From assembly GCF_055900595.2 (NCBI RefSeq), contig NZ_CM148325.1: a DNA stretch of 64,000 nt; one strand, 5' to 3'. This document shows, piece after piece, positions 893 to 64,000 of this stretch (positions are counted from its first letter, which is position 1; each line of letters starts with the position of its first letter). The notes beneath the pieces are model-generated. The model was not told the origin of the DNA. It saw only the letters and a program-made list of their open reading frames with translations, and made no database searches. A program made the translations under genes and the position numbers.

Positions 893-1767
893 TGGCGGAA
901 GTTACCCAATTGAAGCGTTATGACACGCGCCCAATTAACTGGGGCAAATGGTTTCTGATTGGCACCGGAATGCTGGTTTCGGCGTTCATCCTGCTGGTGC
1001 CGATGATTTACATTTTCGTGCAGGCATTCAGCAAAGGGCTGATGCCGGTGTTACAGAATCTGGCCGATCCGGACATGCTGCACGCCATCTGGCTGACGGT
1101 GATGATCGCGCTGATTGCCGTACCGGTAAACCTGGTGTTCGGGATTCTGCTGGCCTGGCTGGTGACGCGCTTTAACTTCCCCGGACGCCAGTTGCTGCTG
1201 ACGCTGCTGGACATTCCGTTTGCCGTGTCGCCGGTGGTTGCCGGTCTGGTCTATCTGCTTTTCTACGGCTCTAACGGCCCGCTCGGCGGCTGGCTGGATG
1301 AACATAATCTGCAAATTATGTTCTCCTGGCCGGGAATGGTGCTGGTCACCATCTTCGTGACCTGTCCGTTTGTGGTGCGCGAGCTGGTGCCGGTGATGTT
1401 AAGCCAGGGCAGCCAGGAAGACGAAGCGGCGATTTTGCTTGGCGCGTCTGGCTGGCAGATGTTCCGCCGCGTCACGCTGCCGAACATCCGCTGGGCTCTG
1501 CTTTATGGCGTGGTGCTGACCAACGCCCGTGCGATTGGCGAGTTTGGCGCGGTGTCGGTGGTTTCCGGCTCGATTCGCGGTGAAACACTTTCGCTGCCGT
1601 TACAGATTGAATTGCTGGAGCAGGACTACAACACCGTCGGCTCCTTTACCGCCGCGGCGCTGTTGACGCTGATGGCGATTATCACCCTGTTTTTAAAGAG
1701 TATGTTGCAGTGGCGCCTGGAGAATCAGGAAAAACGCGCGCAACAGGAGGAACATCATGAGCATTGA
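892..1767 (+). CDS. cysW: Sulfate/thiosulfate ABC transporter permease CysW
   Basis: 291-aa ORF; start overlaps cysU stop (TAATG); paralogous permease profile. Confidence 0.95.
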
Positions 1768-2854
1768 GATTGCCAATATTAAGAAGTCGTTTGGTCGCAC
1801 CCAGGTGCTGAACGATATCTCACTGGATATTCCTTCTGGTCAGATGGTCGCATTGCTGGGGCCGTCCGGTTCCGGGAAAACCACGCTGCTGCGGATTATC
1901 GCCGGGCTGGAGCATCAAACCAGCGGGCATATTCGTTTCCACGGCACCGACGTCAGCCGCCTTCACGCGCGCGATCGTAAAGTCGGTTTCGTGTTTCAGC
2001 ATTACGCCCTGTTCCGCCATATGACGGTGTTCGACAATATCGCCTTCGGCCTGACGGTGCTGCCGCGTCGCGAGCGCCCGAATGCCGCAGCCATCAAAGC
2101 GAAAGTGACAAAATTGCTGGAAATGGTGCAGCTTGCGCATCTGGCGGATCGTTATCCGGCCCAGCTTTCCGGCGGCCAGAAACAGCGTGTGGCGCTGGCG
2201 CGGGCGCTGGCTGTCGAACCGCAAATTCTGCTGCTTGATGAACCGTTTGGCGCGCTGGATGCGCAGGTGCGTAAAGAGCTGCGTCGTTGGCTGCGTCAGT
2301 TGCATGAAGAGCTGAAATTCACCAGCGTGTTCGTGACCCACGACCAGGAAGAAGCGATGGAAGTCGCCAACCGCGTGGTGGTCATGAGCCAGGGCAATAT
2401 CGAACAGGCCGATGAACCGGATCAGGTCTGGCGCGAGCCGGCGACCCGTTTTGTGCTGGAGTTTATGGGCGAAGTGAACCGCTTGCAGGGAACGATTCGC
2501 GGTGGGCAGTTCCACGTTGGTGCGCACCGCTGGCCGCTGGGATACACCCCTGCGTATCAGGGGCCGGTGGATCTCTTCCTGCGCCCGTGGGAAGTGGATA
2601 TCAGCCGCCGCACCAGCCTCGATTCGCCGCTGCCGGTGCAGGTGCTGGAAGCCAGCCCGAAAGGTCACTACACCCAATTAGTCGTGCAGCCGCTGGGGTG
2701 GTATGAAGATCCGCTCACCGTGGTAATGCGTGGTGATGATGCGCCGGTGCGCGGCGATCGTTTGTTCGTCGGGCTGCAACATGCGCGGCTGTATAACGGC
2801 GACGAGCGTATTGAAACCCGCGATGAGGAACTTGCTCTCGCACAAAGCGCCTGA
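1757..2854 (+). CDS. cysA: Sulfate/thiosulfate ABC transporter ATP-binding protein CysA
   Basis: 365 aa; Walker [13 protein letters not shown] signature LSGGQKQR, Walker B LLLDEP; 11-nt overlap with cysW. Confidence 0.95.
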
Positions 2855-2875
2855 TAGGTTGAGTGAATGTTAAAC

Positions 2876-2908
2876 GCCCGGAGGCGCTTCCCGCGATCCG
2901 GGCTTTTT
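2876..2908 (+). terminator. Candidate rho-independent terminator downstream of cysA
   Basis: GC stem gcccgga/tccgggc (7 bp) followed by TTTTT, about 20 nt after cysA stop. Confidence 0.4.
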
Positions 2909-2929
2909 AATGGCAAGGTTTTGTAACCT

Positions 2930-2966
2930 GTAGGCCTGATAAGACGCGTAAACGTCGCATCAGGCA
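2930..2966. repeat. REP (repetitive extragenic palindromic) element
   Basis: gtaggcctgataagacgcg...cgtcgcatcaggca, classic REP palindromic unit in cysA-cysM spacer. Confidence 0.6.
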
Positions 2967-2988
2967 ACACCACGTATGGACAGAAATC

Positions 2989-3900
2989 GTGAGTACATTA
3001 GAACAAACAATAGGCAATACGCCTCTGGTGAAATTACAACGAATGGGGCCGGATAACGGCAGTGAAGTGTGGTTAAAGCTGGAAGGCAATAATCCGGCCG
3101 GTTCGGTGAAAGATCGTGCGGCGCTTTCGATGATCGTCGAGGCGGAAAAGCGCGGGGAAATTAAACCGGGTGATGTGTTAATCGAAGCCACCAGTGGTAA
3201 CACCGGGATTGCGCTGGCAATGATCGCTGCGCTAAAAGGCTATCGCATGAAATTGCTGATGCCCGATAACATGAGCCAGGAGCGTCGCGCGGCGATGCGT
3301 GCCTACGGTGCGGAGCTGATTCTGGTCACCAAAGAGCAGGGCATGGAAGGTGCGCGCGATCTGGCGCTGGAGATGGCGAATCGTGGCGAAGGCAAGCTGC
3401 TCGATCAGTTTAATAATCCCGATAATCCTTATGCGCATTACACCACCACCGGGCCGGAAATCTGGCAGCAAACCGGCGGTCGCATTACCCATTTTGTCTC
3501 CAGCATGGGGACGACCGGTACGATTACCGGCGTGTCGCGCTTTATGCGCGAGCAATCCAAACCGGTGGCGATTGTTGGTCTGCAGCCGGAAGAGGGCAGC
3601 AGCATTCCCGGCATTCGTCGCTGGCCTGAGGAATATCTGCCAGGCATCTTCAACGCTTCGCTGGTGGATGAGGTGCTGGATATTCATCAGCGTGATGCGG
3701 AAAACACCATGCGCGAACTGGCAGTGCGGGAAGGGATTTTCTGCGGTGTAAGTTCCGGTGGCGCGGTTGCCGGAGCACTGCGGGTGGCAAAAGCCAACCC
3801 CGGCGCTGTAGTGGTGGCGATCATCTGCGATCGCGGCGATCGCTACCTTTCTACCGGGGTGTTTGGGGAAGAGCACTTTAGTCAGGGGGCGGGGATTTAA
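2989..3900 (+). CDS. cysM: Cysteine synthase B (O-acetylserine sulfhydrylase B), GTG start
   Basis: 303 aa; PLP-dependent cysteine synthase fold with lysine motif ...GSVKDRAA...; operon position after cysA. Confidence 0.95.
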   Translation: MSTLEQTIGNTPLVKLQRMGPDNGSEVWLKLEGNNPAGSVKDRAALSMIVEAEKRGEIKPGDVLIEATSGNTGIALAMIAALKGYRMKLLMPDNMSQERRAAMRAYGAELILVTKEQGMEGARDLALEMANRGEGKLLDQFNNPDNPYAHYTTTGPEIWQQTGGRITHFVSSMGTTGTITGVSRFMREQSKPVAIVGLQPEEGSSIPGIRRWPEEYLPGIFNASLVDEVLDIHQRDAENTMRELAVREGIFCGVSSGGAVAGALRVAKANPGAVVVAIICDRGDRYLSTGVFGEEHFSQGAGI

Positions 3901-3938
3901 GGATTAATAGCATTGGAGGCTGATGACAAACGCAAAAC

Positions 3939-4037
3939 TGCCTGATGCGCTACGCTTATCAGGCCTACAAGGTTCCTGTAATATATTGAATTAGCAATAT
4001 TTTGTAGGCCGAATAAGGCGTTTACGCTGCATCTGGC
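3939..4037. repeat. BIME-like pair of REP elements
   Basis: tgcctgatgcgctacgcttatcaggcctaca (3939-3969) and gtaggccgaataaggcgtttacgctgcatctggca (4003-4037) in inverted orientation. Confidence 0.6.
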
Positions 4038-4104
4038 ATAAACAAAGTGCACTTTGTCAATAATCTGCTTTGTCGGCAGTTGTTGCTGCCGACAAATGCA
4101 GTTT

Positions 4105-4839
4105 TTAATTTTCGTGTGGAAACGTAGTAAGGTCATCAATCATTTTTTGAAGTATTGGTGAGTCCTGACCATCACCCCATTGAAGAATTTTTGCGGTAAG
4201 CTGATGACGGGCTAGTGCATTGAGTCCCATCTTTTTAAGTTTATGGGAGATTTTACCCATGACTTTAATCTGACCGAATGCAGTTGCGTAGGTAATCATA
4301 TTGCTCTGGATAGTGCTCATTTCATCGGCTAGTAATTGCGCACGAATATCCTCTTCAAGAATACTTTCCATAGCGATATATTTCATACCCCAGATAGTTT
4401 CAATTAACATTTGAGGGAAATCAGCACAATCTAGATCCGGCTCTTTACGCAGGCTATTTTCAAGAACGTTTAGAGCATCAGCACCTTCATCGCTGCCAAA
4501 AGGAGATTCTTCATCCCAGCAACACACATAAAGTGGATCAGTAAAATGGCACTGGAAGTTTGGGTGTGACGTTTTAACATGTAACCCAATTTCTTCATCA
4601 TCAAAATAGTAGCGATCCATGTAGTTAAAGTTTGGATCTTCTTGATAGCCTTTCTTCATTTTTGCGGCAATCAATTTACTGGCTTCTTTCAGACACTGTT
4701 CTTCATTATCGAACTCTTTTGTCTGGAATTTACCAATACTACCTACCTTGCCATAGTTGATGGCTAAACTATCCCCTTCGTAATCTATCCACCAAAATTT
4801 ATTCGATTTTTCATCGTTATAAATAAAGCATTTTTTCAT
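4105..4839 (-). CDS. yfeS: WGR-domain protein YfeS (function unknown)
   Basis: 244-aa ORF, N-terminal FWWIDYEGDSLAINYGKVGSIG resembles WGR domain; conserved position between cysM and yfeK. Confidence 0.85.
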   Translation of the reverse strand: MKKCFIYNDEKSNKFWWIDYEGDSLAINYGKVGSIGKFQTKEFDNEEQCLKEASKLIAAKMKKGYQEDPNFNYMDRYYFDDEEIGLHVKTSHPNFQCHFTDPLYVCCWDEESPFGSDEGADALNVLENSLRKEPDLDCADFPQMLIETIWGMKYIAMESILEEDIRAQLLADEMSTIQSNMITYATAFGQIKVMGKISHKLKKMGLNALARHQLTAKILQWGDGQDSPILQKMIDDLTTFPHEN

Positions 4840-4871
4840 GTTACCTCCTGTAAATGCCTTGCCAAAGCGGA

Positions 4872-5246
4872 TTAATTCCCTTCCGCAGGCACCGTTTTAT
4901 CCGTCTGCGCAATTAACGCATGTAAAAAAGGTTGCGCGTTTTCATCGCTCTTACCGGGCATCTTCACGATATACGGCTTCCCGGTAATCGATGATGACGA
5001 AGCAACCTTATCAATAAATTGCTCAGCAGTATCAATGCGATTACGGGTATTGCCCAGCTTCAGACGCAAATGGGAAACCGCTTCATCGCAGGTATGTTCA
5101 TCGCCGTTGCGCACAAATATCAAATCCTTTTTCTGTGCTAATCCCTCCAGCATGGCGTTGATGCGGGCTTCTTCGTGGGCGGTTAACTTCGCGTAAGCGG
5201 GGAGTGTCATTAGCAGCGTAATGACCAGACAAATGATTTTCTTCAT
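4872..5246 (-). CDS. yfeK: Secreted small protein YfeK (signal peptide, function unknown)
   Basis: 124 aa with N-terminal signal peptide [19 protein letters not shown]; conserved position. Confidence 0.8.
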
Positions 5247-5271
5247 TGAATTACCTTATCCTTGTTTTGTG

Positions 5272-5337
<66 letters not shown>

Positions 5338-5350
5338 GAGAAAAAATTAA

Positions 5351-6202
5351 ATGAGTAGTTTGTTGTTGTTTAACGATAAGAGCAGGGCATTGCAGGCGGA
5401 TATCGTCGCCGTGCAGTCGCAGGTAGTGTACGGCAGCGTAGGCAACAGCATTGCCGTGCCTGCTATCAAACAGAACGGCCTGAATGTCTTTGCCGTGCCG
5501 ACGGTATTGCTGAGCAATACGCCGCATTATGACACTTTCTACGGTGGTGCGATTCCGGACGAATGGTTTAGCGGTTATTTGCGTGCGCTTCAGGAGCGTG
5601 ATGCGCTGCGCCAGCTGCGCGCTGTCACCACGGGCTATATGGGAACGGCATCGCAAATCAAAATCCTTGCCGAGTGGCTGACTGCGCTACGCAAAGACCA
5701 TCCTGACTTATTGATTATGGTCGATCCGGTGATTGGCGATATTGATAGCGGAATTTATGTCAAACCTGACCTTCCTGAGGCATACCGACAATATTTACTG
5801 CCTCTGGCGCAGGGTATTACGCCTAATATCTTTGAGCTGGAAATCCTGACCGGTAAAGATTGCCGCGATCTCGACAGTGCCATTGCCGCAGCAAAAAGTC
5901 TGCTTTCAGACACCTTAAAATGGGTGGTCATTACCAGCGCCTCCGGTAACGAAGAAAATCAGGAGATGCAGGTGGTGGTGGTCAGTGCCGACAGCGTGAA
6001 TGTCATTTCCCATTCTCGGGTAAAGACGGATCTTAAAGGAACAGGCGATCTGTTTTGCGCCCAGCTTATCAGTGGCTTGTTGAAAGGTAAGGAATTAACT
6101 GACGCGGTACATAGCGCGGGATTACGCGTGCTGCAGGTGATGCGCTATACCCAGCAGCATGGTAGTGATGAATTGATTTTGCCGCCCCTGACGGAAGCAT
6201 AA
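5351..6202 (+). CDS. pdxK: Pyridoxal/pyridoxine/pyridoxamine kinase PdxK
   Basis: 283 aa, ribokinase-like PL kinase family sequence; position adjacent to crr. Confidence 0.93.
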
Positions 6203-6794: not shown

Positions 6795-8522
6795 TTAGCA
6801 GATTGTTTTTTCTTCAATGAACTTGTTAACCAGCGTCATTAACTCGTCCGTTGTCGGTTGAGCAAGAGCCTGCTCTGCTAACACCTTCGCATCTTCGAAG
6901 TTCGTGTTACGGATAATCTTCTTAATGCGCGGGATAGAAATGGCGCTCATAGAGAATTCGTCCAGACCCATCCCCAGCAACAGAAGTGTAGCACGTTCAT
7001 CGCCAGCAAGCTCACCACACATGCCAGTCCATTTGCCTTCAGCATGAGAAGCATCAATAACTTGCTTGATCAAGTTCAGCACGGACGGTGACATTGGCTG
7101 GTAAAGGTGTGAAATCATATCATTACCACGGTCAACTGCCAGAGTGTACTGCGTTAAATCATTGGTGCCGATACTAAAGAAATCAACTTCTTTGGCTAAA
7201 TGACGTGCAATTGTTGCGGCCGCTGGTGTTTCCACCATTACGCCGATTTCAATTGACTCGTCAAACGCTTTACCTTCGTCGCGCAGTTCCTGTTTGTAGA
7301 TTTCGATCTCTTTGCGCAGTGCACGCACTTCTTCAACAGAGATGATCATCGGGAACATGATGCGCAATTTACCGAAAGCAGAGGCACGCAGGATAGCGCG
7401 GAGCTGATCGCGCAGGATCTCTTTACGATCCATCGCGATACGGATAGCGCGCCAGCCGAGGAACGGGTTCTCTTCTTTCGGGAAGTTCATGTATGGCAGC
7501 TCTTTGTCGCCGCCGATGTCCATGGTACGAACGATAACCGCTTGTGAGCCACACGCTTCAGCTACTGCTTTGTAAGCAGCAAACTGTTCTTCTTCAGTGG
7601 GCAGCGCGTCGCGGTCCATGAACAGGAACTCAGTACGATACAGACCAACGCCTTCAGCGCCGTTACGCTCTGCACCTTCAACGTCACGAACCGTACCGAT
7701 GTTAGCGCACACTTCTACCTGGTGACCGTCCAGCGTAATAGCTGGCAGATCTTTCAGTTTAGCAAGCTCTGCTTTTTCAGAAGCCACTTGCTCCTGAACA
7801 GCGCGCATTTTATCAATAACTTCGTTGGTTGGATTGACGTAAACCTGATTATTTACGGCATCCAGAATCAGATAGTCGTCATTTTTCACCTGAGAGGTGA
7901 CGCTACCGGTACCCACGATAGCAGGCAGTTCCAGAGAACGCGCCATGATAGAGGTGTGGGAAGTACGGCCACCCGCGTCGGTGATGAAACCCAGCACCTT
8001 CTTCAGGTTCAGCTGTGCGGTTTCGGACGGCGTCAGATCAGCGGCAACCAGAATGACTTCATCCTGAATGGCGCTCAGGTCGATAATCTTCAGGCCCAGG
8101 ATGTTGCGCAGCAGGCGCTTACCGATATCACGTACGTCAGCCGCACGCTCTTTCAGGTATTCATCATCCAGCTCTTCCAGGGCAGAAGCCTGACCTTCGA
8201 TAACTTCATGAGCAGCTGCGTCAGCTGTCATGTGCTTATCTTTAATCAGGGCTATGATTTCCTGCTCCAGCTCCTCATCTTCGAGTAGCATAATATGCCC
8301 TTCAAAGATGGCTTCTTTTTCTTCACCGAACGTTTCACCAGCTTTCGTTTTGATCGTTTCCAGCTGGGCTGATGCCTTGGCACGACCGCTCAGAAAACGT
8401 TCAACTTCCTGATCAACCTGGTCGGCAGAAATTTTTTTCCGGTCAATGACAATTTCGTCTTCTTTCAGAAGCAGAGCTTTACCGAAAGCGATACCCGGGG
8501 ATGCTAAAATGCCTGAAATCAT
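6795..8522 (-). CDS. ptsI: PTS Enzyme I (phosphoenolpyruvate-protein phosphotransferase)
   Basis: 575 aa, recognisable EI sequence; ptsH-ptsI-crr operon. Confidence 0.97.
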
Positions 8523-15743: not shown

Positions 15744-16670
15744 ATGAATTATTCTTTAAAGCAATTAAAGGTTTTCGTCACAGTAGCGCAGGAGAAAAGT
15801 TTTAGTCGTGCAGGAGAGCGTATCGGCCTGAGCCAGTCGGCAGTGAGTCACAGTGTGAAGGAGCTGGAAAATCATACTGGTGTTCGCCTGCTGGACAGAA
15901 CCACGCGTGAAGTGGTGCTTACAGATGCAGGGCAGCAGTTGGCTTTGCGTCTTGAGCGACTGCTGGATGAACTTAACAGCACGTTGCGCGATACCGGGCG
16001 TATGGGGCAACAACTGAGCGGAAAAGTTCGGGTCGCTGCCAGCCAGACCATTTCCGCGCATCTTATTCCGCAATGCATTGCTGAAAGCCATCGCCGCTAT
16101 CCAGATATTCAGTTTGTCCTGCACGATCGTCCGCAGCAGTGGGTGATGGAAAGTATTCGCCAGGGAGATGTCGATTTTGGCATCGTCATCGATCCAGGCC
16201 CAGTGGGCGATCTGCAATGTGAAGCGATTCTTTCCGAGCCTTTCTTTCTGCTTTGCCATCGCGATAGCGCTTTGGCCGTGGAAGATTATGTACCCTGGCA
16301 GGCATTACAGGGAGCGAAATTGGTGTTGCAGGATTACGCGTCAGGCAGCCGACCGCTGATTGACGCAGCGCTGACGCGCAATGGTATTCAGGCGAATATT
16401 GTGCAGGAGATTGGTCATCCGGCGACGCTGTTCCCGATGGTAGCCGCAGGCATCGGCATCAGTATTCTTCCCGCACTGGCGCTACCATTGCCTGAAGGTA
16501 GCCCACTGGTGGTAAAGCGCATTACGCCGGTGGTTGAACGCCAGTTGATGCTGGTGCGCAGGAAGAACCGTTCACTTTCCACCGCCGCTGAAGCGTTATG
16601 GGACGTAGTACGAGACCAGGGCAATGCGCTAATGGCTGGGCGGGAAGGGGATCCGTTGTATCAGATATAG
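15744..16670 (+). CDS. yfeR: LysR-family transcriptional regulator YfeR
   Basis: 308 aa with N-terminal HTH ([35 protein letters not shown]) and LysR substrate-binding domain; divergent from yfeH. Confidence 0.9.
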
Positions 16671-16708
16671 AGTGAATTCATACTGCCGGGAGCTCCGGCA
16701 GTAATCAA

Positions 16709-17473
16709 TCAGAAATTAAATTTGATGGAGTAGATTATCGCATCCTGGTAAAAATCTTCGCCCAGTTTGTCATCCGCATAACGATACTGAATCCCTGTGG
16801 TGATGTGTGAAGTTGCATTCCACCAAAGTGCGACGGCACCGTTCAGACCTTCTTTGCCGCCATTACCTGCCGCGTAGGTGGCATCACGATCAAACTCGTA
16901 CTCGTTCCAGTTGGTGAGGGTGAATTTCTCACTGCCCAGCATAAAGCTGTAACCTGCAACCCAACCGGCGACATAACCGTTATCGCCGGTATAATAGGTT
17001 TGGTCTGTATAGCGTTTTGCAAAGAACGGTTTGAACCACCAACCGCTGCCGGTGAAATTGTAGCCGATCCCGTAAAGGAACATATCGTCATGGAAATTCA
17101 CACGATTCGCAGAACCGTAGGTGCCATACGCATGCAAGTAGAGATTAAATCCGGTGTCACCCAGGTAAATACGGTTGGTATTTTTAAATGTATAACGCTG
17201 CTCGCTACCCTGTTTATCATGACGATCATTATAAAAGTTTTCCCAGTCGAAGAACCCGTACATTTCTCCCCAACTAAAGTTAGCGCCGCCTTCCAGTTCC
17301 AGATATCCAAAATCATCTTTGTGTGATTTGGTCGACGATTTCTCAGTGGTTCTGCTAGTCCAGTCAAGATAATGAATACCTATATCAGCAAAACCGCCTT
17401 TAAATTCTGCATGGGATACTGCTGGTATCGCCAATACAAAAGAGAGTGTCAGAGTAAAAAGATGTTTTTTCAT
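16709..17473 (-). CDS. yfeN: Tsx-family outer membrane channel homolog YfeN
   Basis: 254 aa, signal peptide, aromatic-rich beta-barrel pattern ending in terminal F. Confidence 0.85.
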   Translation of the reverse strand: MKKHLFTLTLSFVLAIPAVSHAEFKGGFADIGIHYLDWTSRTTEKSSTKSHKDDFGYLELEGGANFSWGEMYGFFDWENFYNDRHDKQGSEQRYTFKNTNRIYLGDTGFNLYLHAYGTYGSANRVNFHDDMFLYGIGYNFTGSGWWFKPFFAKRYTDQTYYTGDNGYVAGWVAGYSFMLGSEKFTLTNWNEYEFDRDATYAAGNGGKEGLNGAVALWWNATSHITTGIQYRYADDKLGEDFYQDAIIYSIKFNF

Positions 17474-17721
17474 AGCATAATTCCCTATGCCGATCGTTAT
17501 TAGTTGATTGCTTAATAAAAAGGTTGATTAAAAGCGGCATATTGTTAATGCAAGGGAAAGGAGAGTACCAATACAGTTTTTTCAGCCTATTAATAGTGAA
17601 AAAATATAAATATATCGATATCGAATAACTATCGGATACATGAAAAAAGTGTATTGGTATGAGGTAGGGCAATCTCGTTATAAAAAGGCGTTAGATTCCA
17701 CCCTACAAAAAAAGGATATAT

Positions 17722-18555
17722 ATGTATCAGGCTCAGTTTTCTCATAACCCACTGTATTGCGTAGATATTATCAAGACTTATAAACCTGATTTCACGCCAC
17801 GAGTGGCCTTTATTTTAGGTTCCGGGCTGGGCGCGCTGGCCGATCAGATTGAGAACGCGGTCGCAATTTCCTACGAAAAGCTGCCTGGGTTCCCGGTAAG
17901 TACCGTACACGGTCATGCGGGTGAGCTGGTGCTGGGTTATCTCCAGGGGGTGCCAGTGGCGTGCATGAAAGGTCGCGGACATTTCTACGAAGGTCGTGGG
18001 ATGACCATCATGACGGATGCAATCCGTACCTTTAAGTTGCTGGGCTGCGAGTTGCTGTTCTGCACCAATGCGGCTGGCTCACTGCATCCTGAAGTGGGGG
18101 CCGGCAGTCTGGTCGCATTGAAAGATCACATCAACACCATGCCGGGAACGCCGATGGTGGGTCTTAATGATGAACGTTTTGGTGAGCGCTTCTTCTCGCT
18201 GGCGAATGCCTACGATGCGGAATACCGCGCACTGTTACAAAAAGTGGCGAAAGAAGAGGGGTTCCCTCTGACGGAGGGCGTGTTCGTCTCGTATCCGGGG
18301 CCGAATTTCGAGACTGCGGCGGAAATTCGCATGATGCAAATTATTGGTGGGGATGTTGTTGGTATGTCTGTGGTGCCTGAGGTTATTTCAGCTCGCCATT
18401 GCGAACTTAAAGTCGTTGCGGTCTCTGCGATTACCAACATGGCGGAAGGTCTGAGTGACGTGAAGCTTTCTCATGCCCAAACGCTGGCAGCAGCGGAACT
18501 CTCAAAGCAAAACTTTATTAATCTTATTTGCGGCTTTCTGCGCAAAATTGCCTGA
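17722..18555 (+). CDS. xapA: Xanthosine phosphorylase (purine nucleoside phosphorylase II)
   Basis: 277 aa PNP-family sequence; followed by xapB. Confidence 0.95.
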   Translation: MYQAQFSHNPLYCVDIIKTYKPDFTPRVAFILGSGLGALADQIENAVAISYEKLPGFPVSTVHGHAGELVLGYLQGVPVACMKGRGHFYEGRGMTIMTDAIRTFKLLGCELLFCTNAAGSLHPEVGAGSLVALKDHINTMPGTPMVGLNDERFGERFFSLANAYDAEYRALLQKVAKEEGFPLTEGVFVSYPGPNFETAAEIRMMQIIGGDVVGMSVVPEVISARHCELKVVAVSAITNMAEGLSDVKLSHAQTLAAAELSKQNFINLICGFLRKIA

Positions 18556-18615
18556 GTAAAACAACAATAAACGGCCTCACTGAGTGAGGCCATATGATGC
18601 GACAAGGAAACGATT

Positions 18616-19872
18616 ATGAGCATCGCTTTGCGCTTAAAGGTAATGTCCTTTTTGCAATATTTTATCTGGGGGAGCTGGCTGGTTACCCTCGGTTCTTACA
18701 TGATTAATACCCTTCATTTCACCGGCGCTAATGTTGGCATGGTTTACAGTTCCAAAGGGATCGCCGCGATTATTATGCCTGGTATAATGGGGATCATCGC
18801 AGACAAATGGCTGCGTGCAGAACGTGCATACATGCTGTGTCACCTGGTGTGTGCGGGCGTACTTTTTTATGCGGCATCCGTAACTGATCCGGATATGATG
18901 TTTTGGGTGATGTTAGTCAATGCGATGGCGTTTATGCCGACTATTGCGTTATCGAACAGCGTCTCTTATTCCTGTCTTGCCCAGGCAGGGCTTGACCCGG
19001 TGACCGCTTTCCCGCCCATTCGCGTTTTTGGTACGGTGGGGTTCATTGTCGCCATGTGGGCAGTAAGCCTGCTGCATCTGGAATTGAGTAGTCTGCAACT
19101 GTATATCGCGTCCGGTGCGTCATTGCTGCTGTCGGCTTATGCGCTGACTTTGCCGAAGATTCCGGTTGCGGAGAAAAAAGCGACTACATCGCTTGCCAGC
19201 AAGCTGGGTCTGGATGCCTTCGTGCTGTTTAAAAATCCACGCATGGCTATCTTTTTCCTCTTCGCCATGATGCTGGGTGCGGTGCTGCAAATTACCAACG
19301 TTTTTGGCAACCCGTTCCTGCATGATTTCGCCCGTAATCCTGAGTTTGCTGATAGCTTCGTGGTGAAATATCCGTCCATTTTACTGTCAGTTTCACAGAT
19401 GGCTGAAGTCGGTTTCATTCTGACGATACCGTTCTTTTTGAAGCGTTTCGGTATTAAAACCGTCATGCTGATGAGTATGGTGGCGTGGACGCTGCGCTTT
19501 GGCTTCTTTGCCTATGGCGATCCATCACCAACCGGGTTTATTTTGCTGTTGCTGTCGATGATTGTTTACGGTTGTGCATTCGATTTCTTCAATATTTCTG
19601 GTTCGGTCTTTGTCGAACAGGAAGTTGATTCCAGCATTCGTGCCAGCGCCCAGGGCCTTTTTATGACGATGGTAAATGGCGTCGGCGCATGGGTTGGCTC
19701 GATTCTGAGCGGTATGGCAGTGGATTACTTCTCGGTGGATGGCGTAAAAGATTGGCATACCATTTGGCTGATGTTTGCAGGGTATGCTCTTTTCCTCGCA
19801 GTGATATTTTTCTTTGGGTTTAAATATAACCATGACCCTGAAAAGATAACGCATCGTTCAGTTACACATTAA
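18616..19872 (+). CDS. xapB: Xanthosine permease (nucleoside:H+ symporter family)
   Basis: 418 aa, 12-TM MFS-like profile. Confidence 0.93.
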   Translation: MSIALRLKVMSFLQYFIWGSWLVTLGSYMINTLHFTGANVGMVYSSKGIAAIIMPGIMGIIADKWLRAERAYMLCHLVCAGVLFYAASVTDPDMMFWVMLVNAMAFMPTIALSNSVSYSCLAQAGLDPVTAFPPIRVFGTVGFIVAMWAVSLLHLELSSLQLYIASGASLLLSAYALTLPKIPVAEKKATTSLASKLGLDAFVLFKNPRMAIFFLFAMMLGAVLQITNVFGNPFLHDFARNPEFADSFVVKYPSILLSVSQMAEVGFILTIPFFLKRFGIKTVMLMSMVAWTLRFGFFAYGDPSPTGFILLLLSMIVYGCAFDFFNISGSVFVEQEVDSSIRASAQGLFMTMVNGVGAWVGSILSGMAVDYFSVDGVKDWHTIWLMFAGYALFLAVIFFFGFKYNHDPEKITHRSVTH

Positions 19873-20123
19873 AAGGATTCGCAGCTCTGTTCCTTGGGGC
19901 TGCTTTTATGATAAAGGTTAATTAGTGAAAGATATTTTATTTTCTTCTGGCGTTGGTTTTGGCATTGGTGCTTTGTTTACAATCGTGCGATTACCTATTC
20001 CTGTTCCAAATGTATTGCCGGGTATATTATCCATCGTGTTTATGTATGTCGGATATCTGGTGGTGAAATACTTTATGCCATGATAATTTAATATGATGTA
20101 TTTTTTATATGGAGCACTTAATT

Positions 20124-21008
20124 ATGGAACGCGTATATAGAACAGATCTTAAGTTGCTCCGTTATTTTCTTGCCGTAGCGGAAGAGTTGCATTTTGGTCG
20201 CGCAGCAGCGCGTTTAAATATGTCTCAGCCTCCGCTCAGTATTCATATTAAAGAGCTGGAAAATCAACTCGGCACGCAGCTTTTTATTCGCCATTCGCGC
20301 AGCGTCGTACTGACACACGCGGGCAAAATCTTGATGGAAGAATCGCGTCGATTGCTGGTGAATGCAAATAATATATTGGCTCGGGTTGAACAAATAGGTC
20401 GGGGAGAAGCAGGGCGGATTGAACTCGGGGTTGTGGGAACGGCAATGTGGGGACGGATGCGCCCGGTTATGCGGCGATTCCTTAGAGAAAATCCTAACGT
20501 TGAAGTTCTGTTTCGCGAAAAGATGCCCGCGATGCAAATGGCCTTGCTGGAACGCCGCGAACTTGATGCCGGGATCTGGCGAATGGCGACAGAACCACCG
20601 ACTGGTTTTACCAGCTTACGGTTGCATGAATCGGCGTTTCTGGTGGCGATGCCTGAAGAGCATCATCTCTCATCATTTTCCACCGTCCCGCTGGAAGCGC
20701 TACGTGACGAGTATTTCGTTACAATGCCGCCCGTGTACACTGACTGGGATTTTTTGCAGCGAGTTTGCCAGCAGGTGGGATTTTCACCGGTTGTTATTCG
20801 CGAAGTTAATGAACCGCAAACGGTACTCGCCATGGTCAGTATGGGTATTGGTATCACATTGATAGCGGACAGCTACGCGCAGATGAACTGGCCCGGTGTC
20901 ATATTCCGTCCGCTCAAAGAACGCATCCCGGCAGACTTATATATTGTTTATGAAACGCAGCAGGTGACGCCCGCGCTGGTTAAACTGCTGGCGGCGTTGG
21001 CGCAGTAG
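20124..21008 (+). CDS. xapR: LysR-family activator XapR (start trimmed to MERVYR)
   Basis: LysR HTH (LKLLRYFLAVAEELHFGRAAARLNMSQPPLSIHIKELE); 294 aa from trimmed start. Confidence 0.9.
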   Translation: MERVYRTDLKLLRYFLAVAEELHFGRAAARLNMSQPPLSIHIKELENQLGTQLFIRHSRSVVLTHAGKILMEESRRLLVNANNILARVEQIGRGEAGRIELGVVGTAMWGRMRPVMRRFLRENPNVEVLFREKMPAMQMALLERRELDAGIWRMATEPPTGFTSLRLHESAFLVAMPEEHHLSSFSTVPLEALRDEYFVTMPPVYTDWDFLQRVCQQVGFSPVVIREVNEPQTVLAMVSMGIGITLIADSYAQMNWPGVIFRPLKERIPADLYIVYETQQVTPALVKLLAALAQ

Positions 21009-21078
21009 ATGAGAGGCACGGGAACTGCCGGACATAGTTGGTCTGATAAGCGAAGCGCATCAGGCAATTTCGCAAATT

Positions 21079-21291
21079 GCAGATAGCAAAAAAGCGCCTT
21101 TAGGGCGCTTTTTTACATTGGTGGGTCGTGCAGGATGACTCGCTTCGCTCGCCCTTCGGGCCGTCGCCGCGAGCGGCTCCGTTGTTTCGCTGCGCTCAAC
21201 TCGAACCTGCTGCAGGTTCGAATCTTTGAGTATCGCAGATAGCAAAAAAGCGCCTTTAGGGCGCTTTTTTACATTGGTGGGTCGTGCAGGA
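21079..21291. repeat. 57-bp direct repeat (two copies, 21079-21135 and 21235-21291) comprising the lysV terminator plus the 3'-terminal 17 nt of tRNA-Lys
   Basis: gcagatagcaaaaaagcgcctttagggcgcttttttacattggtgggtcgtgcagga occurs twice 156 bp apart; second copy continues into intact lysV. Confidence 0.7.
21243..21269 (-). terminator. Rho-independent terminator of the valU-valX-valY-lysV tRNA operon
   Basis: On minus strand: stem agcgcc/ggcgct followed by TTTTTT, immediately 3' of lysV CCA end. Confidence 0.55.
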
Positions 21292-21349
21292 TTCGAACCT
21301 GCGACCAATTGATTAAAAGTCAACTGCTCTACCAACTGAGCTAACGACC
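21274..21349 (-). tRNA. lysV: tRNA-Lys (anticodon UUU)
   Basis: Reverse complement reads GGGTCGTTAGCTCAGTTGGTAGAGCAGTTGACTTTTAATCAATTGGTCGCAGGTTCGAATCCTGCACGACCCACCA. Confidence 0.95.
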
Positions 21350-26958: not shown

Positions 26959-27018
26959 CAGGCGTAAAAAAAGCAGGGAATTATCCCCGGCTTTTGTGGC
27001 TGATGACAAACAGAAAAA

Positions 27019-27049
27019 TGCCTGATGCGCTACGCTTATCAGGCCTACA
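27019..27049. repeat. REP element in yfeA-nupC spacer
   Basis: tgcctgatgcgctacgcttatcaggcctaca, same REP unit as at 3939-3969. Confidence 0.55.
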
Positions 27050-27059
27050 TGGAATTGAA

Positions 27060-27084
27060 GCCGGGGAATTATCCCCGGCTTTTT
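27060..27084. terminator. Bidirectional rho-independent terminator (yfeA / nupC), GGGG-N6-CCCC hairpin
   Basis: 8-bp stem gccgggga/tccccggc, 4-nt loop, T5 on plus strand; A/T-rich on the other side. Confidence 0.55.
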
Positions 27085-59166: not shown

Positions 59167-60704
59167 TGGCAATCACTAAATCAACTCCGGCACCATTAAC
59201 CGGTGGGACGTTATGGTGCGTCACTATTGCATTGTCATTAGCGACGTTTATGCAAATGTTGGACTCCACTATTTCTAACGTCGCAATACCCACAATATCT
59301 GGCTTTCTCGGAGCATCAACGGACGAAGGCACATGGGTTATCACATCGTTTGGCGTAGCAAATGCCATTGCGATCCCTGTTACCGGCAGGCTGGCACAAA
59401 GAATAGGCGAATTAAGGTTATTTTTACTATCAGTAACCTTCTTTTCGCTGTCTTCATTAATGTGTAGTCTTTCGACTAATCTTGATGTTCTTATATTTTT
59501 TAGAGTCGTCCAGGGATTAATGGCGGGGCCGTTAATTCCATTGTCACAGAGTTTATTATTAAGGAATTATCCGCCAGAAAAAAGAACATTTGCTTTGGCG
59601 TTATGGTCAATGACCGTAATTATCGCTCCGATTTGTGGGCCGATATTGGGTGGCTATATTTGTGATAACTTTAGTTGGGGATGGATATTTTTAATCAATG
59701 TCCCTATGGGGATTATCGTCCTGACATTATGTTTAACTTTACTTAAAGGAAGAGAAACTGAAACTTCACCGGTCAAAATGAATTTACCAGGGTTGACCCT
59801 GTTAGTGCTCGGTGTTGGTGGCTTGCAAATTATGCTTGATAAAGGGCGCGATCTGGATTGGTTTAACTCGAGTACAATCATAATATTAACAATAGTGTCA
59901 GTTATTTCTCTGATCTCTCTAGTCATTTGGGAGTCGACCTCAGAGAACCCGATTCTTGACCTCAGTTTATTCACGTCGCGTAATTTCACCATTGGTATTG
60001 TGTGTATCACATGCGCATATTTATTTTACTCTGGGGCGATTGTACTTATGCCGCAGTTGCTGCAGGAAACTATGGGGTATAATGCGATATGGGCCGGGCT
60101 TGCCTATGCGCCAATCGGCATAATGCCACTATTAATATCGCCTTTAATAGGACGTTATGGCAACAAAATTGATATGCGTGCATTGGTTACATTTAGTTTT
60201 TTGATGTATGCGGTTTGCTATTACTGGCGTTCTGTGACATTTATGCCAACGATTGATTTCACAGGCATCATTTTGCCACAGTTTTTCCAGGGATTCGCCG
60301 TTGCCTGTTTCTTTTTACCCTTAACAACGATTTCGTTTTCAGGGTTGCCAGATAATAAATTTGCCAATGCCTCGAGTATGAGTAATTTTTTTCGTACCCT
60401 GTCAGGATCAGTTGGTACGTCGTTGACAATGACGTTGTGGGGACGACGCGAATCGTTACACCATAGTCAGTTGACAGCAACCATCGATCAATTTAACCCC
60501 GTGTTTAATTCATCATCACAAATTATGGATAAATACTATGGTTCGCTTTCAGGGGTTCTTAATGAAATTAATAATGAAATAACTCAGCAGTCACTTTCAA
60601 TTTCTGCAAATGAGATTTTCCGTATGGCGGCTATTGCTTTTATCTTACTTACGGTATTGGTTTGGTTTGCGAAACCGCCGTTTACAGCGAAAGGTGTTGG
60701 GTGA
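59166..60704 (+). CDS. emrY: Multidrug efflux MFS transporter EmrY (EmrB paralog)
   Basis: 512 aa, 14-TM MFS; start overlaps emrK stop. Confidence 0.93.
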   Translation: MAITKSTPAPLTGGTLWCVTIALSLATFMQMLDSTISNVAIPTISGFLGASTDEGTWVITSFGVANAIAIPVTGRLAQRIGELRLFLLSVTFFSLSSLMCSLSTNLDVLIFFRVVQGLMAGPLIPLSQSLLLRNYPPEKRTFALALWSMTVIIAPICGPILGGYICDNFSWGWIFLINVPMGIIVLTLCLTLLKGRETETSPVKMNLPGLTLLVLGVGGLQIMLDKGRDLDWFNSSTIIILTIVSVISLISLVIWESTSENPILDLSLFTSRNFTIGIVCITCAYLFYSGAIVLMPQLLQETMGYNAIWAGLAYAPIGIMPLLISPLIGRYGNKIDMRALVTFSFLMYAVCYYWRSVTFMPTIDFTGIILPQFFQGFAVACFFLPLTTISFSGLPDNKFANASSMSNFFRTLSGSVGTSLTMTLWGRRESLHHSQLTATIDQFNPVFNSSSQIMDKYYGSLSGVLNEINNEITQQSLSISANEIFRMAAIAFILLTVLVWFAKPPFTAKGVG

Positions 60705-60781
60705 TGGTAAAAAGAGGAGGCTAGAGCAGGCAAGTCCGCGGAATTTTGAACCTGTACCATCATTTTATATGGATATTATCA

Positions 60782-60821
60782 GGCAGCATCGCTCACCCAG
60801 GGAAAGGATGGCGATGCTGCG
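60782..60821. other. Perfect 10-bp inverted repeat hairpin between convergent emrY and dsdA (possible terminator)
   Basis: gcagcatcgc ... gcgatgctgc; no T-run. Confidence 0.3.
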
Positions 60822-60832
60822 GTGAAACGTTA

Positions 60833-62161
60833 TTAACGGCCTTTAGCCAGATATTGCTTCATCTCTTCTTCCGGCACCATTCCACCTCCTGTCGCCCACA
60901 CCAGATGAGTGGCATTACGCAGTTGTTCTGTGCTGAAACCTTGCATCTGTTGGTAAATTACTGATGCGCACACGCGCTGAGGCCCGGCCATACCCGCCAG
61001 TGCTGAAGGCTCAAGACGAATGTCTTCTTCCTGCGCCAGCCAGCCAAGCATGTCATACATGGTTTGATCGCTAAGGGTATAGAAGCCATCCAGCAGACGC
61101 TCCATTGCCCGCCCGACAAAGCCTGATGCGCGACCAACAGCAAGGCCATCCGCTGCGGTAAGGTTGTCGATACCAATATCCTGAACAGAAATCTGATCGT
61201 GTAATCCAGTATGGACGCCTAACAGCATACAAGGGGAGTGCGTGGGTTCGGCAAAAAAGCAGTGAACATGATCGCCAAACGCCAGTTTAAGACCGAATGC
61301 GACGCCACCAGGACCACCGCCAACGCCACACGGCAGATAGACAAACAGAGGGTTACCAGCATCGACGATACGACCTTGCTTGGCAAATTGCGCTTTAAGA
61401 CGCTGGCCTGCGACGGAATACCCAAGGAACAACGTGCGGGAATTCTCGTCATCAATAAAGAAACAGTTCGGGTCAGACTGCGCTGCTTTACGTCCTTCCT
61501 CGACGGCAACCCCATAATCTTGCTCATATTCCACGACCGTAACGCCATGGCTGCGCAGTTTCTCTTTTTTCCATGCTCGGGCATCAGCAGACATATGCAC
61601 TGTCACCTTAAAGCCAATGCGGGCGCTCATAATGCCGATTGATAACCCCAGATTTCCGGTTGAGCCCACAGCAATGCTGTATTGGCTAAAGAACTGTTTA
61701 AACTCCGGAGAAAGCAGTTTGCTGTAGTCATCTTCAAGCGTCAGCAACCCTGCTTCCAGAGCCAGTTTTTCTGCATGTGCCAGGACTTCATAAATCCCGC
61801 CGCGTGCTTTTATGGAGCCGGAAATAGGCAAATGGCTATCTTTTTTCAGTAACAGTTGCCCGCTGATCGGTTGCTGATATTCCTTTTCCAGCCGTTTTTG
61901 CATAGCCGGAATGGCAACCAGTTCTGATTCAATAATCCCTCCAGAGGCAGCCGTTTCAGGAAATGCTTTTGCCAGATAGGGGGCAAAACGAGATAAGCGC
62001 GCATGGGCGTCCTGAACATCCTGTTCGGTCAGGCCAACATAAGGTAAACCTTCAGCCAATGAGGTCGTGCCAGGATTGAACCAGGTGGTTTCTTTAAGAG
62101 CAACCAGATCCTTTACCAACGGATACTGGGCGATGAGCGAGTTCATTTTAGCGTTTTCCAT
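60833..62161 (-). CDS. dsdA: D-serine ammonia-lyase (D-serine dehydratase)
   Basis: 442 aa [19 protein letters not shown]...; PLP-lysine context SGSIKARGG. Confidence 0.95.
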
Positions 62162-62361
62162 AGTATGTCTCTTTGCGCTTCGATGATAAATGACAGCAGG
62201 AATGTGCCCGCCAGAGCGACGACTGAAGCGATAAATGTCGCTGTCGTATAGTATTTATATGTTTCACTGAGCGTAGCGCCGCAAAATTGTTTCATCAGCC
62301 AGAAAAACGAGTCCGTAACGATCGTGCAGCCAATCGCAATAATTTCCGGGCTGATGTCTGG
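62143..62361 (-). pseudogene. dsdX: 3'-terminal remnant of D-serine transporter gene dsdX (about 72 codons, 5' truncated)
   Basis: Hand translation of minus strand gives [60 protein letters not shown]..., a GntP-family C-terminus; frame closed by in-frame TAA at 62362-62364; overlaps dsdA start. Confidence 0.5.
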
Positions 62362-62617
62362 TTACAGCCACAGCACAATGATCCATATTTATATTTTTTC
62401 TCCGGGTGGGTGATGCCAGTCGGCATGTTTTACCTACTTGTCTGCATGGTGACTCGTTGGCGAGAACAGAGGCGGAATTGGTTACAATTGTCCGGGAATT
62501 CTTGTTATTTTTTACTGTATTGTCGTGTCGGGTGATAGGACGTTAAGAATATCGCTGGATCTCGCCAGTGACGTCTGTTTCTGCTACAGTGCCCGTTTTA
62601 CGGCAAACGGCTTGGGT

Positions 62618-63613
62618 ATGGCTTCATTAAAGGATGTCGCACGCCTGGCGGGAGTGTCGATGATGACTGTCTCCCGGGTGATGCATAATGCAGAATCTGT
62701 GCGTCCTGCAACGCGTGACCGCGTATTGCAGGCAATCCAAACCCTGAATTATGTTCCTGATCTTTCCGCTCGTAAGATGCGCGCTCAGGGACGTAAGCCG
62801 TCGACTCTCGCCGTGCTGGCGCAGGATACTGCTACCACTCCTTTCTCTGTTGATATTCTGCTTGCCATTGAACAAACCGCCAGCGAGTTTGGCTGGAATA
62901 GTTTTTTAATCAATATTTTTTCTGAAGATGACGCTGCCCGCGCGGCACGTCAGCTGCTTGCCCTCCGTCCGGATGGCATTATCTATTCTACAATGGGACT
63001 GAGGCATATCACGCTGCCTGAGTCTCTGCATGGTGAAAATATTGTATTGGCGAACTGTGTGGCGGATGACCCAGCGTTACCCAGTTATATCCCTGATGAT
63101 TACACTGCCCAATATGAAGCAACACAGCATTTGCTCGCGGCAGGCTATCGTCAACCGTTATGCTTCTGGCTACCGGAAGGTGCGTTGGCAACAGGGTATC
63201 GTCGGCAGGGATTTGAGCAGGCCTGGCGTGATGCTGGACGAGATCTGGCTGAGGTGAAACAATTTCACATGGTCATAGGTGATGATCACTACACCGATCT
63301 CGCAAGTATACTCAATGCCCACTTCCCGTCTGGAAAACCAGATTTTGATGTTCTGATTTGTGGTAACGATCGCGCAGCCTTTGTGGCTTATCAGGTTCTT
63401 CTGGCGAAGGGGGTACGTATCCCGCAGGATGTCGCCGTAATGGGCTTTGATAATCTGGTTGGCGTCGGGCATCTGTTTTTACCGCCGCTGACCACAATTC
63501 AGCTTCCACATGACATTATCGGGCGGGAAGCTGCATTGCATATTATTGAAGGTCGTGAAGGGGGAAGGGTAACGCAGATCCCTTGCCCGCTGTTGATCCG
63601 TTGTTCCACCTGA
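62618..63613 (+). CDS. cscR: LacI-family sucrose operon repressor CscR (start trimmed to MASLKDV)
   Basis: 331 aa from trimmed start; LacI-type HTH (MASLKDVARLAGVSMMTVSRVMHN) and periplasmic-binding-like sugar domain. Confidence 0.85.
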   Translation: MASLKDVARLAGVSMMTVSRVMHNAESVRPATRDRVLQAIQTLNYVPDLSARKMRAQGRKPSTLAVLAQDTATTPFSVDILLAIEQTASEFGWNSFLINIFSEDDAARAARQLLALRPDGIIYSTMGLRHITLPESLHGENIVLANCVADDPALPSYIPDDYTAQYEATQHLLAAGYRQPLCFWLPEGALATGYRRQGFEQAWRDAGRDLAEVKQFHMVIGDDHYTDLASILNAHFPSGKPDFDVLICGNDRAAFVAYQVLLAKGVRIPQDVAVMGFDNLVGVGHLFLPPLTTIQLPHDIIGREAALHIIEGREGGRVTQIPCPLLIRCST

Positions 63614-63620
63614 TATTATG

Positions 63621-64000
63621 TTACCCCAGTTGCCAGAGTGCTCCATGTTTCAGCACGGCCACTCCGTGGGCGGCATAGAGCGACAGTTCCCGTTCTTCTG
63701 GCTGCGGATAGATTCGGCTACTCATCACTGCTTCCCCGTCGTTAATAAATACTTCCACGGATGATGTATCGATAAATATCCTTAGGGCGAGCGTGTCACG
63801 CTGCGGGAGGGGAATACTACGGTAACCATCTAAATTCTCGTGTGGGTAATACCGCCACAAAACAAGTCGCTCAGATTGGTTATCAATATACAGCCGCATT
63901 CCCGTGCCGAGCTGTAATCCGTAATGTTCGGCATCGCTGTTCTTCAGAGCCCAGTGCAACTGAATCTCAACCGCTTGCGCGTTTTCCTGCAAAACATATT
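63621..64000 (-). CDS. cscA: Sucrose-6-phosphate hydrolase / invertase CscA (GH32), C-terminal part only; gene runs off right edge
   Basis: Minus-strand ORF ending 7 nt from cscR stop, C-terminal beta-sandwich-like sequence; convergent cscR-cscA arrangement typical of the csc locus. Confidence 0.75.
   Translation of the reverse strand, partial: YVLQENAQAVEIQLHWALKNSDAEHYGLQLGTGMRLYIDNQSERLVLWRYYPHENLDGYRSIPLPQRDTLALRIFIDTSSVEVFINDGEAVMSSRIYPQPEERELSLYAAHGVAVLKHGALWQLG

Follow-up and report, generated by a model that had tools for sequence, protein, structure and literature searches.

A csc-type allele of the Escherichia coli argW-dsd region with a decayed dsdX stub next to an intact dsdA

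At the right end of the DNA analyzed here, a stretch of 64,000 nucleotides to which we refer as the window, dsdA stands without a neighboring dsdC or a full-length dsdX. What has taken the place of these genes, how did the exchange come about, and what does it imply for the dsdA that was left behind? We are confident that this end of the window is the csc-type form of the E. coli argW-dsd region, in which a block of about 5.56 kb comprising cscR, cscA, cscK, and cscB was swapped in for dsdC and the first ~373 codons of dsdX by a single ancestral illegitimate recombination, the allele being passed on later by inheritance or by homologous recombination in the core DNA on either side. Gene content, the breakpoint and its identity across lineages, allele frequencies, and signatures of selection were read directly from the genomes compared, and no feature of the sequence speaks against this reading.

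Genes at the csc side of dsdA

The gene for D-serine ammonia-lyase, dsdA (60833-62161, minus strand), is an intact open reading frame of 442 aa, as had been supposed from the letters alone. Its product scores 808 bits against TIGR02035 (cut-off, 368) and 774 bits against NF002823, also above the cut-off, and differs from K-12 DsdA at 11 residues. The dN/dS of the gene is 0.10-0.12 in comparisons with O157, FORC_043, CNREC_004-43, and K-12.

On the opposite strand lies cscR (62618-63613, plus strand), an intact gene for a LacI-family sucrose-operon repressor of 331 aa. Two Pfam domains were found in the product, a LacI helix-turn-helix (PF00356, residues 3-48, E = 2e-21) and Peripla_BP_1 (PF00532, residues 61-329, E = 5e-87), and 319 of its residues are identical to WP_001309629.1, annotated as "sucrose operon repressor CscR" (319-320 of 331, or 96%, when the O157 orthologue is included). 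All 17 matches to LacI-family equivalog models fall below the curated cut-offs and NCBIfam holds no CscR-specific model, so the assignment rests on the 96% identity to annotated CscR together with synteny; the gene occupies the position of z3626/cscR in EDL933 (PMC7486766). Alignment of the product to CscR agrees with the sequence-only reading. The dN/dS of cscR is 0.18-0.19. Upstream of the gene, a csc-side spacer without a K-12 counterpart (62376-62617) presumably holds the cscR promoter. The spacer is 7-12% different from that of other csc+ strains, with a 12-bp indel in FORC_043, and a promoter scan of positions 62000-64000 found no consensus promoter in it; the only promoter-like site reported (2.3 expected) is inside cscR, on the antisense strand. 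A terminator scan of the same positions gave six hairpins (2.0 expected), all within coding sequence or the spacer and unconvincing.

The last 126 codons of cscA (63621-64000, minus strand), cut by the end of the window, are convergent with cscR, the stop codons of the two genes being 7 nt apart. This fragment covers the GH32 C-terminal domain of the invertase, matches positions 353-447 of TIGR01322 (scrB_fam, E = 1.4e-16), and is identical to RefSeq CscA at 120 of 126 residues (tblastn), so that the invertase proposed as the neighbor of the repressor is indeed present. The genes cscK and cscB, the cscA promoter, and the CscR operators lie outside the window and are known from a near-identical genome that mismatches the final 12.3 kb of the window at three positions. 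There, cscA is intact (477 aa, with Glyco_hydro_32N and 32C domains) and is followed by genes annotated as intact for the fructokinase (cscK, 304 aa) and the sucrose:H+ symporter (cscB, 415 aa).

The missing genes were not found elsewhere in the DNA searched. K-12 DsdC used as a tblastn query recovered in the window only 28-42% paralogue matches, at yfeR and xapR, and the near-identical genome also gave no dsdC match. No full-length dsdX or dsdC lies adjacent to the locus in the window or in the 9 kb beyond it in the near-identical genome, which bears out the claim that dsdC and most of dsdX are missing next to dsdA. A duplicate dsdCXA such as K1 strains have was considered and rejected for the closest relatives, as each of the 25 window-type genome records has just one place where the 3′ end of dsdX meets the 5′ end of dsdA.

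Positions 1-62375 of the window are collinear with K-12 (blastn), position 62375 corresponding to K-12 2478967. No further extra segment longer than 20 nt relative to K-12 was found in the 64-kb window, so the description of csc as its sole accessory island holds against K-12, the other extra segments being at most 20 nt. Base composition was discarded as an island marker, as the GC content of the csc block (48.1%) is not distinctive from that of the window (49.0%). Taken alone, cscB has 42.9% GC.

According to RefSeq annotation, the cscRAKB-for-dsdCX arrangement is found in 2660 of 5426 complete E. coli genomes, about half, and dsdC with the 5′ part of dsdX in 2772; both arrangements are chromosomal in every case. 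The arrangement is therefore ordinary, and it is well known: the replacement of dsdCX by csc and its phenotypes have been published (PMC7486766, PMC4366372, PMC3032704, PMC11251922, PMC13054288). Slow growth on sucrose by way of csc and the toxicity of D-serine, which csc strains cannot use, are also credited to Jahreis 2002, Moritz & Welch 2006, Connolly 2015, O'Boyle 2020, and Stephens 2024. These counts, the breakpoint shared with O157, and the literature together uphold the earlier identification of a known strain-variable allele of the argW-dsdCXA region, and the coordinates proposed for all its features were confirmed. An assembly artefact or chimera was rejected, since the arrangement is common to 2660 complete chromosomes.

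The dsdX/csc junction and the decay of the dsdX remnant

A five-way alignment of the window, O157, FORC_043, CNREC_004-43, and K-12 places the point where dsdX-derived backbone gives way to the csc block between positions 62375 and 62376. The sequence across the breakpoint reads GGCAGCA followed by CAATGATCC. Homology to K-12 ends at base 2478967 in all four csc+ lineages, that of the window (represented by the near-identical genome), O157, FORC_043, and CNREC_004-43, and resumes beyond the csc block at the 3′ end of argW or at attR. A breakpoint identical to the base in four lineages points to one ancestral replacement event and marks the allele as old. One might suppose instead that csc was inserted repeatedly and independently at the argW hotspot in separate lineages, for example through integrating phages or islands, the window being one of several events. 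It is true that argW is a documented hotspot of integration and recombination and that the region downstream of cscB varies, with a prophage in the near-identical genome, a DUF4942 fragment and a recombinase in O157, and in FORC_043 argW itself, immediately after the csc block. However, this variability is on the argW side of cscB and not at the junction, and independent illegitimate events should not coincide in a breakpoint base for base, as the four lineages do at K-12 2478967, the divergent lineage of the window included. We regard recurrent insertion as highly improbable.

All the dsdX-derived DNA in the window amounts to 197 nt (62179-62375, minus strand; blastn to K-12, five-way alignment, and tblastn) and corresponds to the last 218 nt of K-12 dsdX less a 21-bp deletion near 62350/62351. 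Full-length DsdX (445 aa) is absent: by tblastn and alignment, only K-12 DsdX residues 374-445 are represented, with seven of them deleted and an internal stop, and the remnant matches positions 379-445 of 445 of the DsdX equivalog model NF007395. When translated and aligned with the K-12 gene, the remnant shows an open frame of 72 sense codons (62143-62361, minus strand), bounded by a TAA at 62362-62364 (TTA on the plus strand) and a TGA at 62143-62145, that overlaps the start of dsdA by 19 nt. The sequence-only reading had counted about 72 surviving dsdX codons closed by the in-frame stop at 62362-62364. The frame and its stop are real, but only 60 of the codons are derived from dsdX (62182-62361); the native stop was lost by a TAA-to-GAA change (62179-62181), and this codon and 11 further ones are read-through. 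Nor is the stop the end of the remnant, as it arose by a TAT-to-TAA point mutation 11 nt inside the true junction. The figure of 72 codons masks a decay of the stub that is specific to the lineage. In genomes identical to the window across 60700-64000, the 219 nt of this frame carry the PGAP annotation of a partial GntP/DsdX pseudogene.

In the five-way alignment, the stub carries 12-14 substitutions in 214 nt, in addition to the indel, an in-frame deletion that took out seven dsdX codons, and the two changes at stop codons. Only 25 of the 2658 csc+ complete-genome records (~1%) have this stub allele. The lineage of the window is probably cryptic clade I rather than a classical phylogroup, and the decayed stub appears to mark that clade.

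Age of the allele and state of the orphan dsdA

Relative to mainstream E. coli, dS is 0.09 for dsdA, 0.09-0.16 for the csc genes, and 0.24-0.26 for emrY. Thirty-nine core genes of the window have a median of 0.171, and with values that run from 0.03 to 0.54 the window is clearly a mosaic. These values could be taken to mean that the csc allele is a recent arrival in cryptic clade I, obtained from mainstream E. coli through homologous recombination over argW and dsdA-emrY, since dsdA and the csc genes are below the core median, the neighboring emrY stands at 0.24-0.26, and the window is a mosaic. Nevertheless, 0.09-0.16 is far from zero, the csc and dsdA values lie at the 10th to 50th percentile of the core genes, and the changes in stub and spacer are confined to the 25 records mentioned above. 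A dS so far from zero, together with these lineage-specific changes, argues for a long residence in the lineage and not for a recent transfer, which we consider improbable.

For regulation and phenotype we drew on the literature. CscR represses the cscA and cscKB promoters; when sucrose is present, it enters through the proton symporter CscB and is cleaved by CscA to glucose and fructose, the latter being phosphorylated by CscK. The use of sucrose predicted from the letters alone rests on cscK and cscB, outside the window, and csc alone confers slow growth or sometimes none: csc+ scr- isolates are slow on sucrose, with no growth in 5 of 29 (PMC11251922).

Having lost the activator DsdC and the dsdX promoter, dsdA would be essentially silent, and csc+ cells would be expected not to grow on D-serine and to be inhibited by it, unless deletions placed dsdA under the cscA promoter. 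The useless dsdX stub has decayed further in the lineage of the window, through the 21-bp deletion, the new stop, and the loss of the native one, with dsdA and cscR remaining intact. One can also ask whether the orphan dsdA is kept in use, either from a weak promoter of its own or through transcription running on from the CscR-controlled promoter of cscA, which has the same direction. That would leave D-serine deamination under the control of sucrose. The gene is intact and its dN/dS stays at 0.10-0.12 even between csc+ lineages while the adjacent stub decays, more than 98% of E. coli retain dsdA (PMC4366372), and cscA and dsdA are on the same strand with no convincing terminator between them in our scan. 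Moreover, in EHEC the loss of cscR, or deletions that move the cscA promoter closer, activate dsdA and allow D-serine catabolism (PMC7486766). However, D-serine inhibits wild-type csc+ EHEC and EPEC, which fail to grow on it, and a reporter fragment spanning the wild-type stretch from the cscA promoter to dsdA gave a low signal (PMC7486766, PMC4366372). The low dN/dS, in turn, could stem from recombination with dsd+ strains, where selection acts on dsdA. We find it unlikely that the gene is in use. The same reserve applies to a broader proposal, to which we would give a small chance: that csc-for-dsdCX is an old polymorphism maintained at about 50:50, judging from the identical breakpoint in clade I and E. 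coli sensu stricto and from csc dS values near the core, and that purifying selection keeps the orphan dsdA because the cell still makes use of it, perhaps by read-through from the CscR-controlled promoter of cscA. If this were true, D-serine detoxification in csc+ strains would be sucrose-inducible and not lost.

Comparison with known csc and dsd loci

The alternative between csc and dsd is a textbook-level strain marker that predicts sensitivity to D-serine and slow use of sucrose. It also correlates with pathotype, in that most LEE-positive gut pathogens have csc and urinary and meningitis strains have dsdCXA. Bockmann 1992, Jahreis 2002, and Moritz & Welch 2006 are said to be the sources for the cscRAKB regulon at the argW-dsd locus. 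Compared with the intact dsdCXA of K-12 and CFT073, the window shares dsdA and the last 65 dsdX-derived codons, in the same place by emrY, but lacks dsdC, DsdX residues 1-373, and the DsdC-dependent dsdC-dsdX promoter region. The csc genes of Citrobacter freundii are homologous (cscR, cscA, cscK, cscB) and their CscR operators are conserved (Stephens 2024, PMC11251922), but each of the genes cscA and cscR is inverted, and divergence has put the locus beyond the reach of blastn (PMC11251922).

The closest known counterpart is the cscRAKB locus at argW-dsd of EC3132, W, and O157:H7 EDL933. It has the same order and orientation, with dsdA, the dsdX stub, cscR, a convergent cscA, and then cscK and cscB, in the same chromosomal place beside emrY-emrK-evgAS; in O157 it also has the same dsdX/csc breakpoint. 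CscR and the C-terminus of CscA are 96% and 95% identical, respectively, to the proteins in the window. The window differs from this allele by a divergence of 3-4% in cscR and cscA and by a more degraded stub, with the 21-bp deletion, the TAT-to-TAA change, the loss of the native stop, and a frame that overlaps dsdA. Current understanding of the locus is unchanged by an old allele whose stub decay appears to tag clade I, and the csc locus of the window is useful mainly for annotation and as a lineage marker.

Gene content at the end of the window

The sequence-only reading had placed a csc locus beside dsdA in place of dsdC and most of dsdX, and our analysis confirmed this replacement. Four features occupy the terminal 3.2 kb of the window. 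Particularly, dsdA (60833-62161, minus strand) codes for 442 aa and scores 808 bits (cut-off, 368) against TIGR02035, the D-serine ammonia-lyase equivalog model. Next to it on the same strand lies a short open frame (62143-62361), the dsdX stub, whose match to the DsdX model is confined to the C-terminal end (positions 379-445 of 445), and then comes cscR (62618-63613, plus strand), a 331-codon gene whose product combines an HTH of the LacI type with an effector domain, Peripla_BP_1. The last feature is the 3′ end of cscA (63621-64000, minus strand), cut by the window end; its match to the GH32 sucrose hydrolase family is to the C-terminal portion. All the coordinates proposed earlier were correct, including an in-frame TAA at 62362-62364 (TTA on the plus strand). 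The window carries no dsdC: in tblastn searches of it, DsdC retrieved only weak LysR paralogues, and DsdX matched only through residues 374-445.

The 62618-63613 product aligns to CscR, as predicted: it is identical at 319-320 of 331 residues to the same-position proteins of O157 FDAARGOS_293, FORC_043, and CNREC_004-43, the last of which is WP_001309629.1, the RefSeq "sucrose operon repressor CscR". Likewise, the convergent gene read as the 3′ end of a GH32 invertase is cscA, with 120 of its 126 C-terminal residues identical to RefSeq CscA. E200086, which shows 3 differences from the window over its last 12.3 kb, carries past the window end the remainder of cscA (full product 477 aa, with the N and C domains of GH32), cscK (304 aa), and cscB (415 aa), all three annotated as intact; these are followed by torI and by a prophage located at argW attR.

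Positions 1-62375 are collinear, in reverse orientation, with K-12 MG1655 2542570..2478967 at about 95.7% identity, the sole break being a missing IS186C, and the window holds no further extra segment longer than 20 nt relative to K-12. The csc block is therefore the only accessory island against K-12, as had been stated. IS186C lies between nupC and pdeA in K-12; at 26988-27063 of the window, a 76-nt stretch without the IS joins the collinear blocks. In-frame length differences occur in zipA (11731, +12 nt) and yfdX (47072, −3 nt). The emrY-dsdA spacer (60705-60832) exceeds its K-12 counterpart by about 21 nt, the additional bases lying at about 60739-60782, and in many genomes megablast homology begins only at 60778. 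Immediately 3′ of dsdA, a 10-bp perfect inverted repeat (60783-60792/60811-60820) could be a shared terminator.

The junction and the dsdX stub

Homology to K-12 stops within dsdX at window position 62375 (K-12 2478967). The junction is thus 62375|62376, with GGCAGCA on the dsdX side and CAATGATCC opening the csc side; the stop at 62362-62364 is present as described but is not the junction. The dsdX-derived DNA (62179-62375, 197 nt) corresponds to the last 218 nt of K-12 dsdX less an in-frame deletion of 21 bp that has short direct repeats on its flanks. This allele also carries three changes of its own: TAT, coding for Tyr, became TAA at 62362-62364, 11 nt inside the junction; GTG became ATG at 62295; and the native dsdX stop, TAA, became GAA at 62179-62181, so that the frame extends 12 codons and overlaps the dsdA start codon. 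The 72 dsdX codons previously said to survive do form a 72-codon frame, but only 60 are dsdX-derived and 12 are read-through. As would be expected of a pseudogene, 12-14 substitutions have built up over 214 nt of the stub, together with an indel and two stop-codon changes.

Within the stub, a 50-codon ORF (62143-62295, minus strand) starts at ATG where K-12 has GTG, continues past the former dsdX stop and shares 19 nt with the start of dsdA. This ORF is probably meaningless, but it could affect dsdA translation.

Distribution, origin and lineage

The whole dsdA-stub-cscR-cscA arrangement was found in 2660 of 5426 complete E. coli genomes, invariably on the chromosome, and the K-12 dsdC-dsdX 5′ segment in 2772. 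The two are close to complementary alleles, and the earlier reading of a known strain-variable dsdCXA arrangement is supported. The csc block spans about 5.56 kb, and K-12 homology restarts at the argW 3′ end, or at attR where a prophage occupies argW. In E200086, O157, FORC_043, and CNREC_004-43, K-12 homology ends at the identical base, 2478967. A dsdX breakpoint common to all the lineages examined argues for one ancestral replacement rather than repeated insertions. The argW side is variable: the window's relatives carry torI and a lambdoid/P22-like prophage (L001, the E200086 locus, 15805-21301); O157 carries a DUF4942 fragment and a recombinase gene (L005, 12427-14623); and FORC_043 has argW about 440 nt past cscB (L006, 12415-12930). 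The element that introduced csc may have left the DUF4942 fragment behind as a relic.

The window is 95.2-95.8% identical to K-12, while three other csc-positive strains reach 97.4-99.3% over the evgS-to-dsdX segment; median synonymous divergence is 0.171 (39 core genes). Among the closest complete genomes are 2013C-4282 and EC42405, which PMC10100065 lists as cryptic clade I, a group for which it gives ANI >95.9% to E. coli sensu stricto. The source strain is probably a member of clade I. The shortened stub is present in only 25 of 2658 csc-positive records, each with a single dsdX3′/dsdA5′ place and therefore no second dsdXA copy. The dS of the csc genes against O157 (0.09-0.16) lies inside the core-gene range, indicating long residence of the allele in this lineage, and purifying selection acts on both dsdA (dN/dS 0.10-0.12) and cscR (0.18-0.19). 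Along the window, divergence from K-12 forms a strongly mosaic pattern, with high dS in yfeN (0.54) and in xapA, pdxK, cysM, and cysA (0.31-0.35), and only 0.03-0.04 in ptsI and yfeR (cysA, cysM, and pdxK at ~1757-5351; ptsI, 6795-8522; yfeR, 15744-16670; yfeN and xapA, ~16709-18555), which suggests past recombination tracts.

Relation to known csc/dsd loci

In characterized strains, CscR represses cscA and cscKB; sucrose is imported by CscB and hydrolyzed by CscA, and the fructose is phosphorylated by CscK (PMC3032704, PMC11251922). Growth on sucrose with csc alone is slow or very slow, and 5 of 29 csc-positive, scr-negative isolates did not grow (PMC11251922). Once DsdC is lost and DsdX truncated, the dsd system is non-functional and D-serine is both unusable and toxic; in EHEC, D-serine represses the LEE secretion system (PMC4366372, PMC7486766). 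Deletion of cscR or of the entire csc block can reactivate dsdA, with transcription from either the cscA promoter or one lying upstream (PMC7486766).

Work spanning the late 1970s to 2026 had already made the csc/dsd arrangement known; our analysis adds only the exact position of the junction, the decay of the stub particular to this lineage, the probable clade I origin and evidence for an old allele. In the O157-type stub, a 17-nt gap separates the 72 retained dsdX codons from dsdA, whereas the stub described here overlaps the dsdA start, and their equal length of 72 codons is a coincidence.
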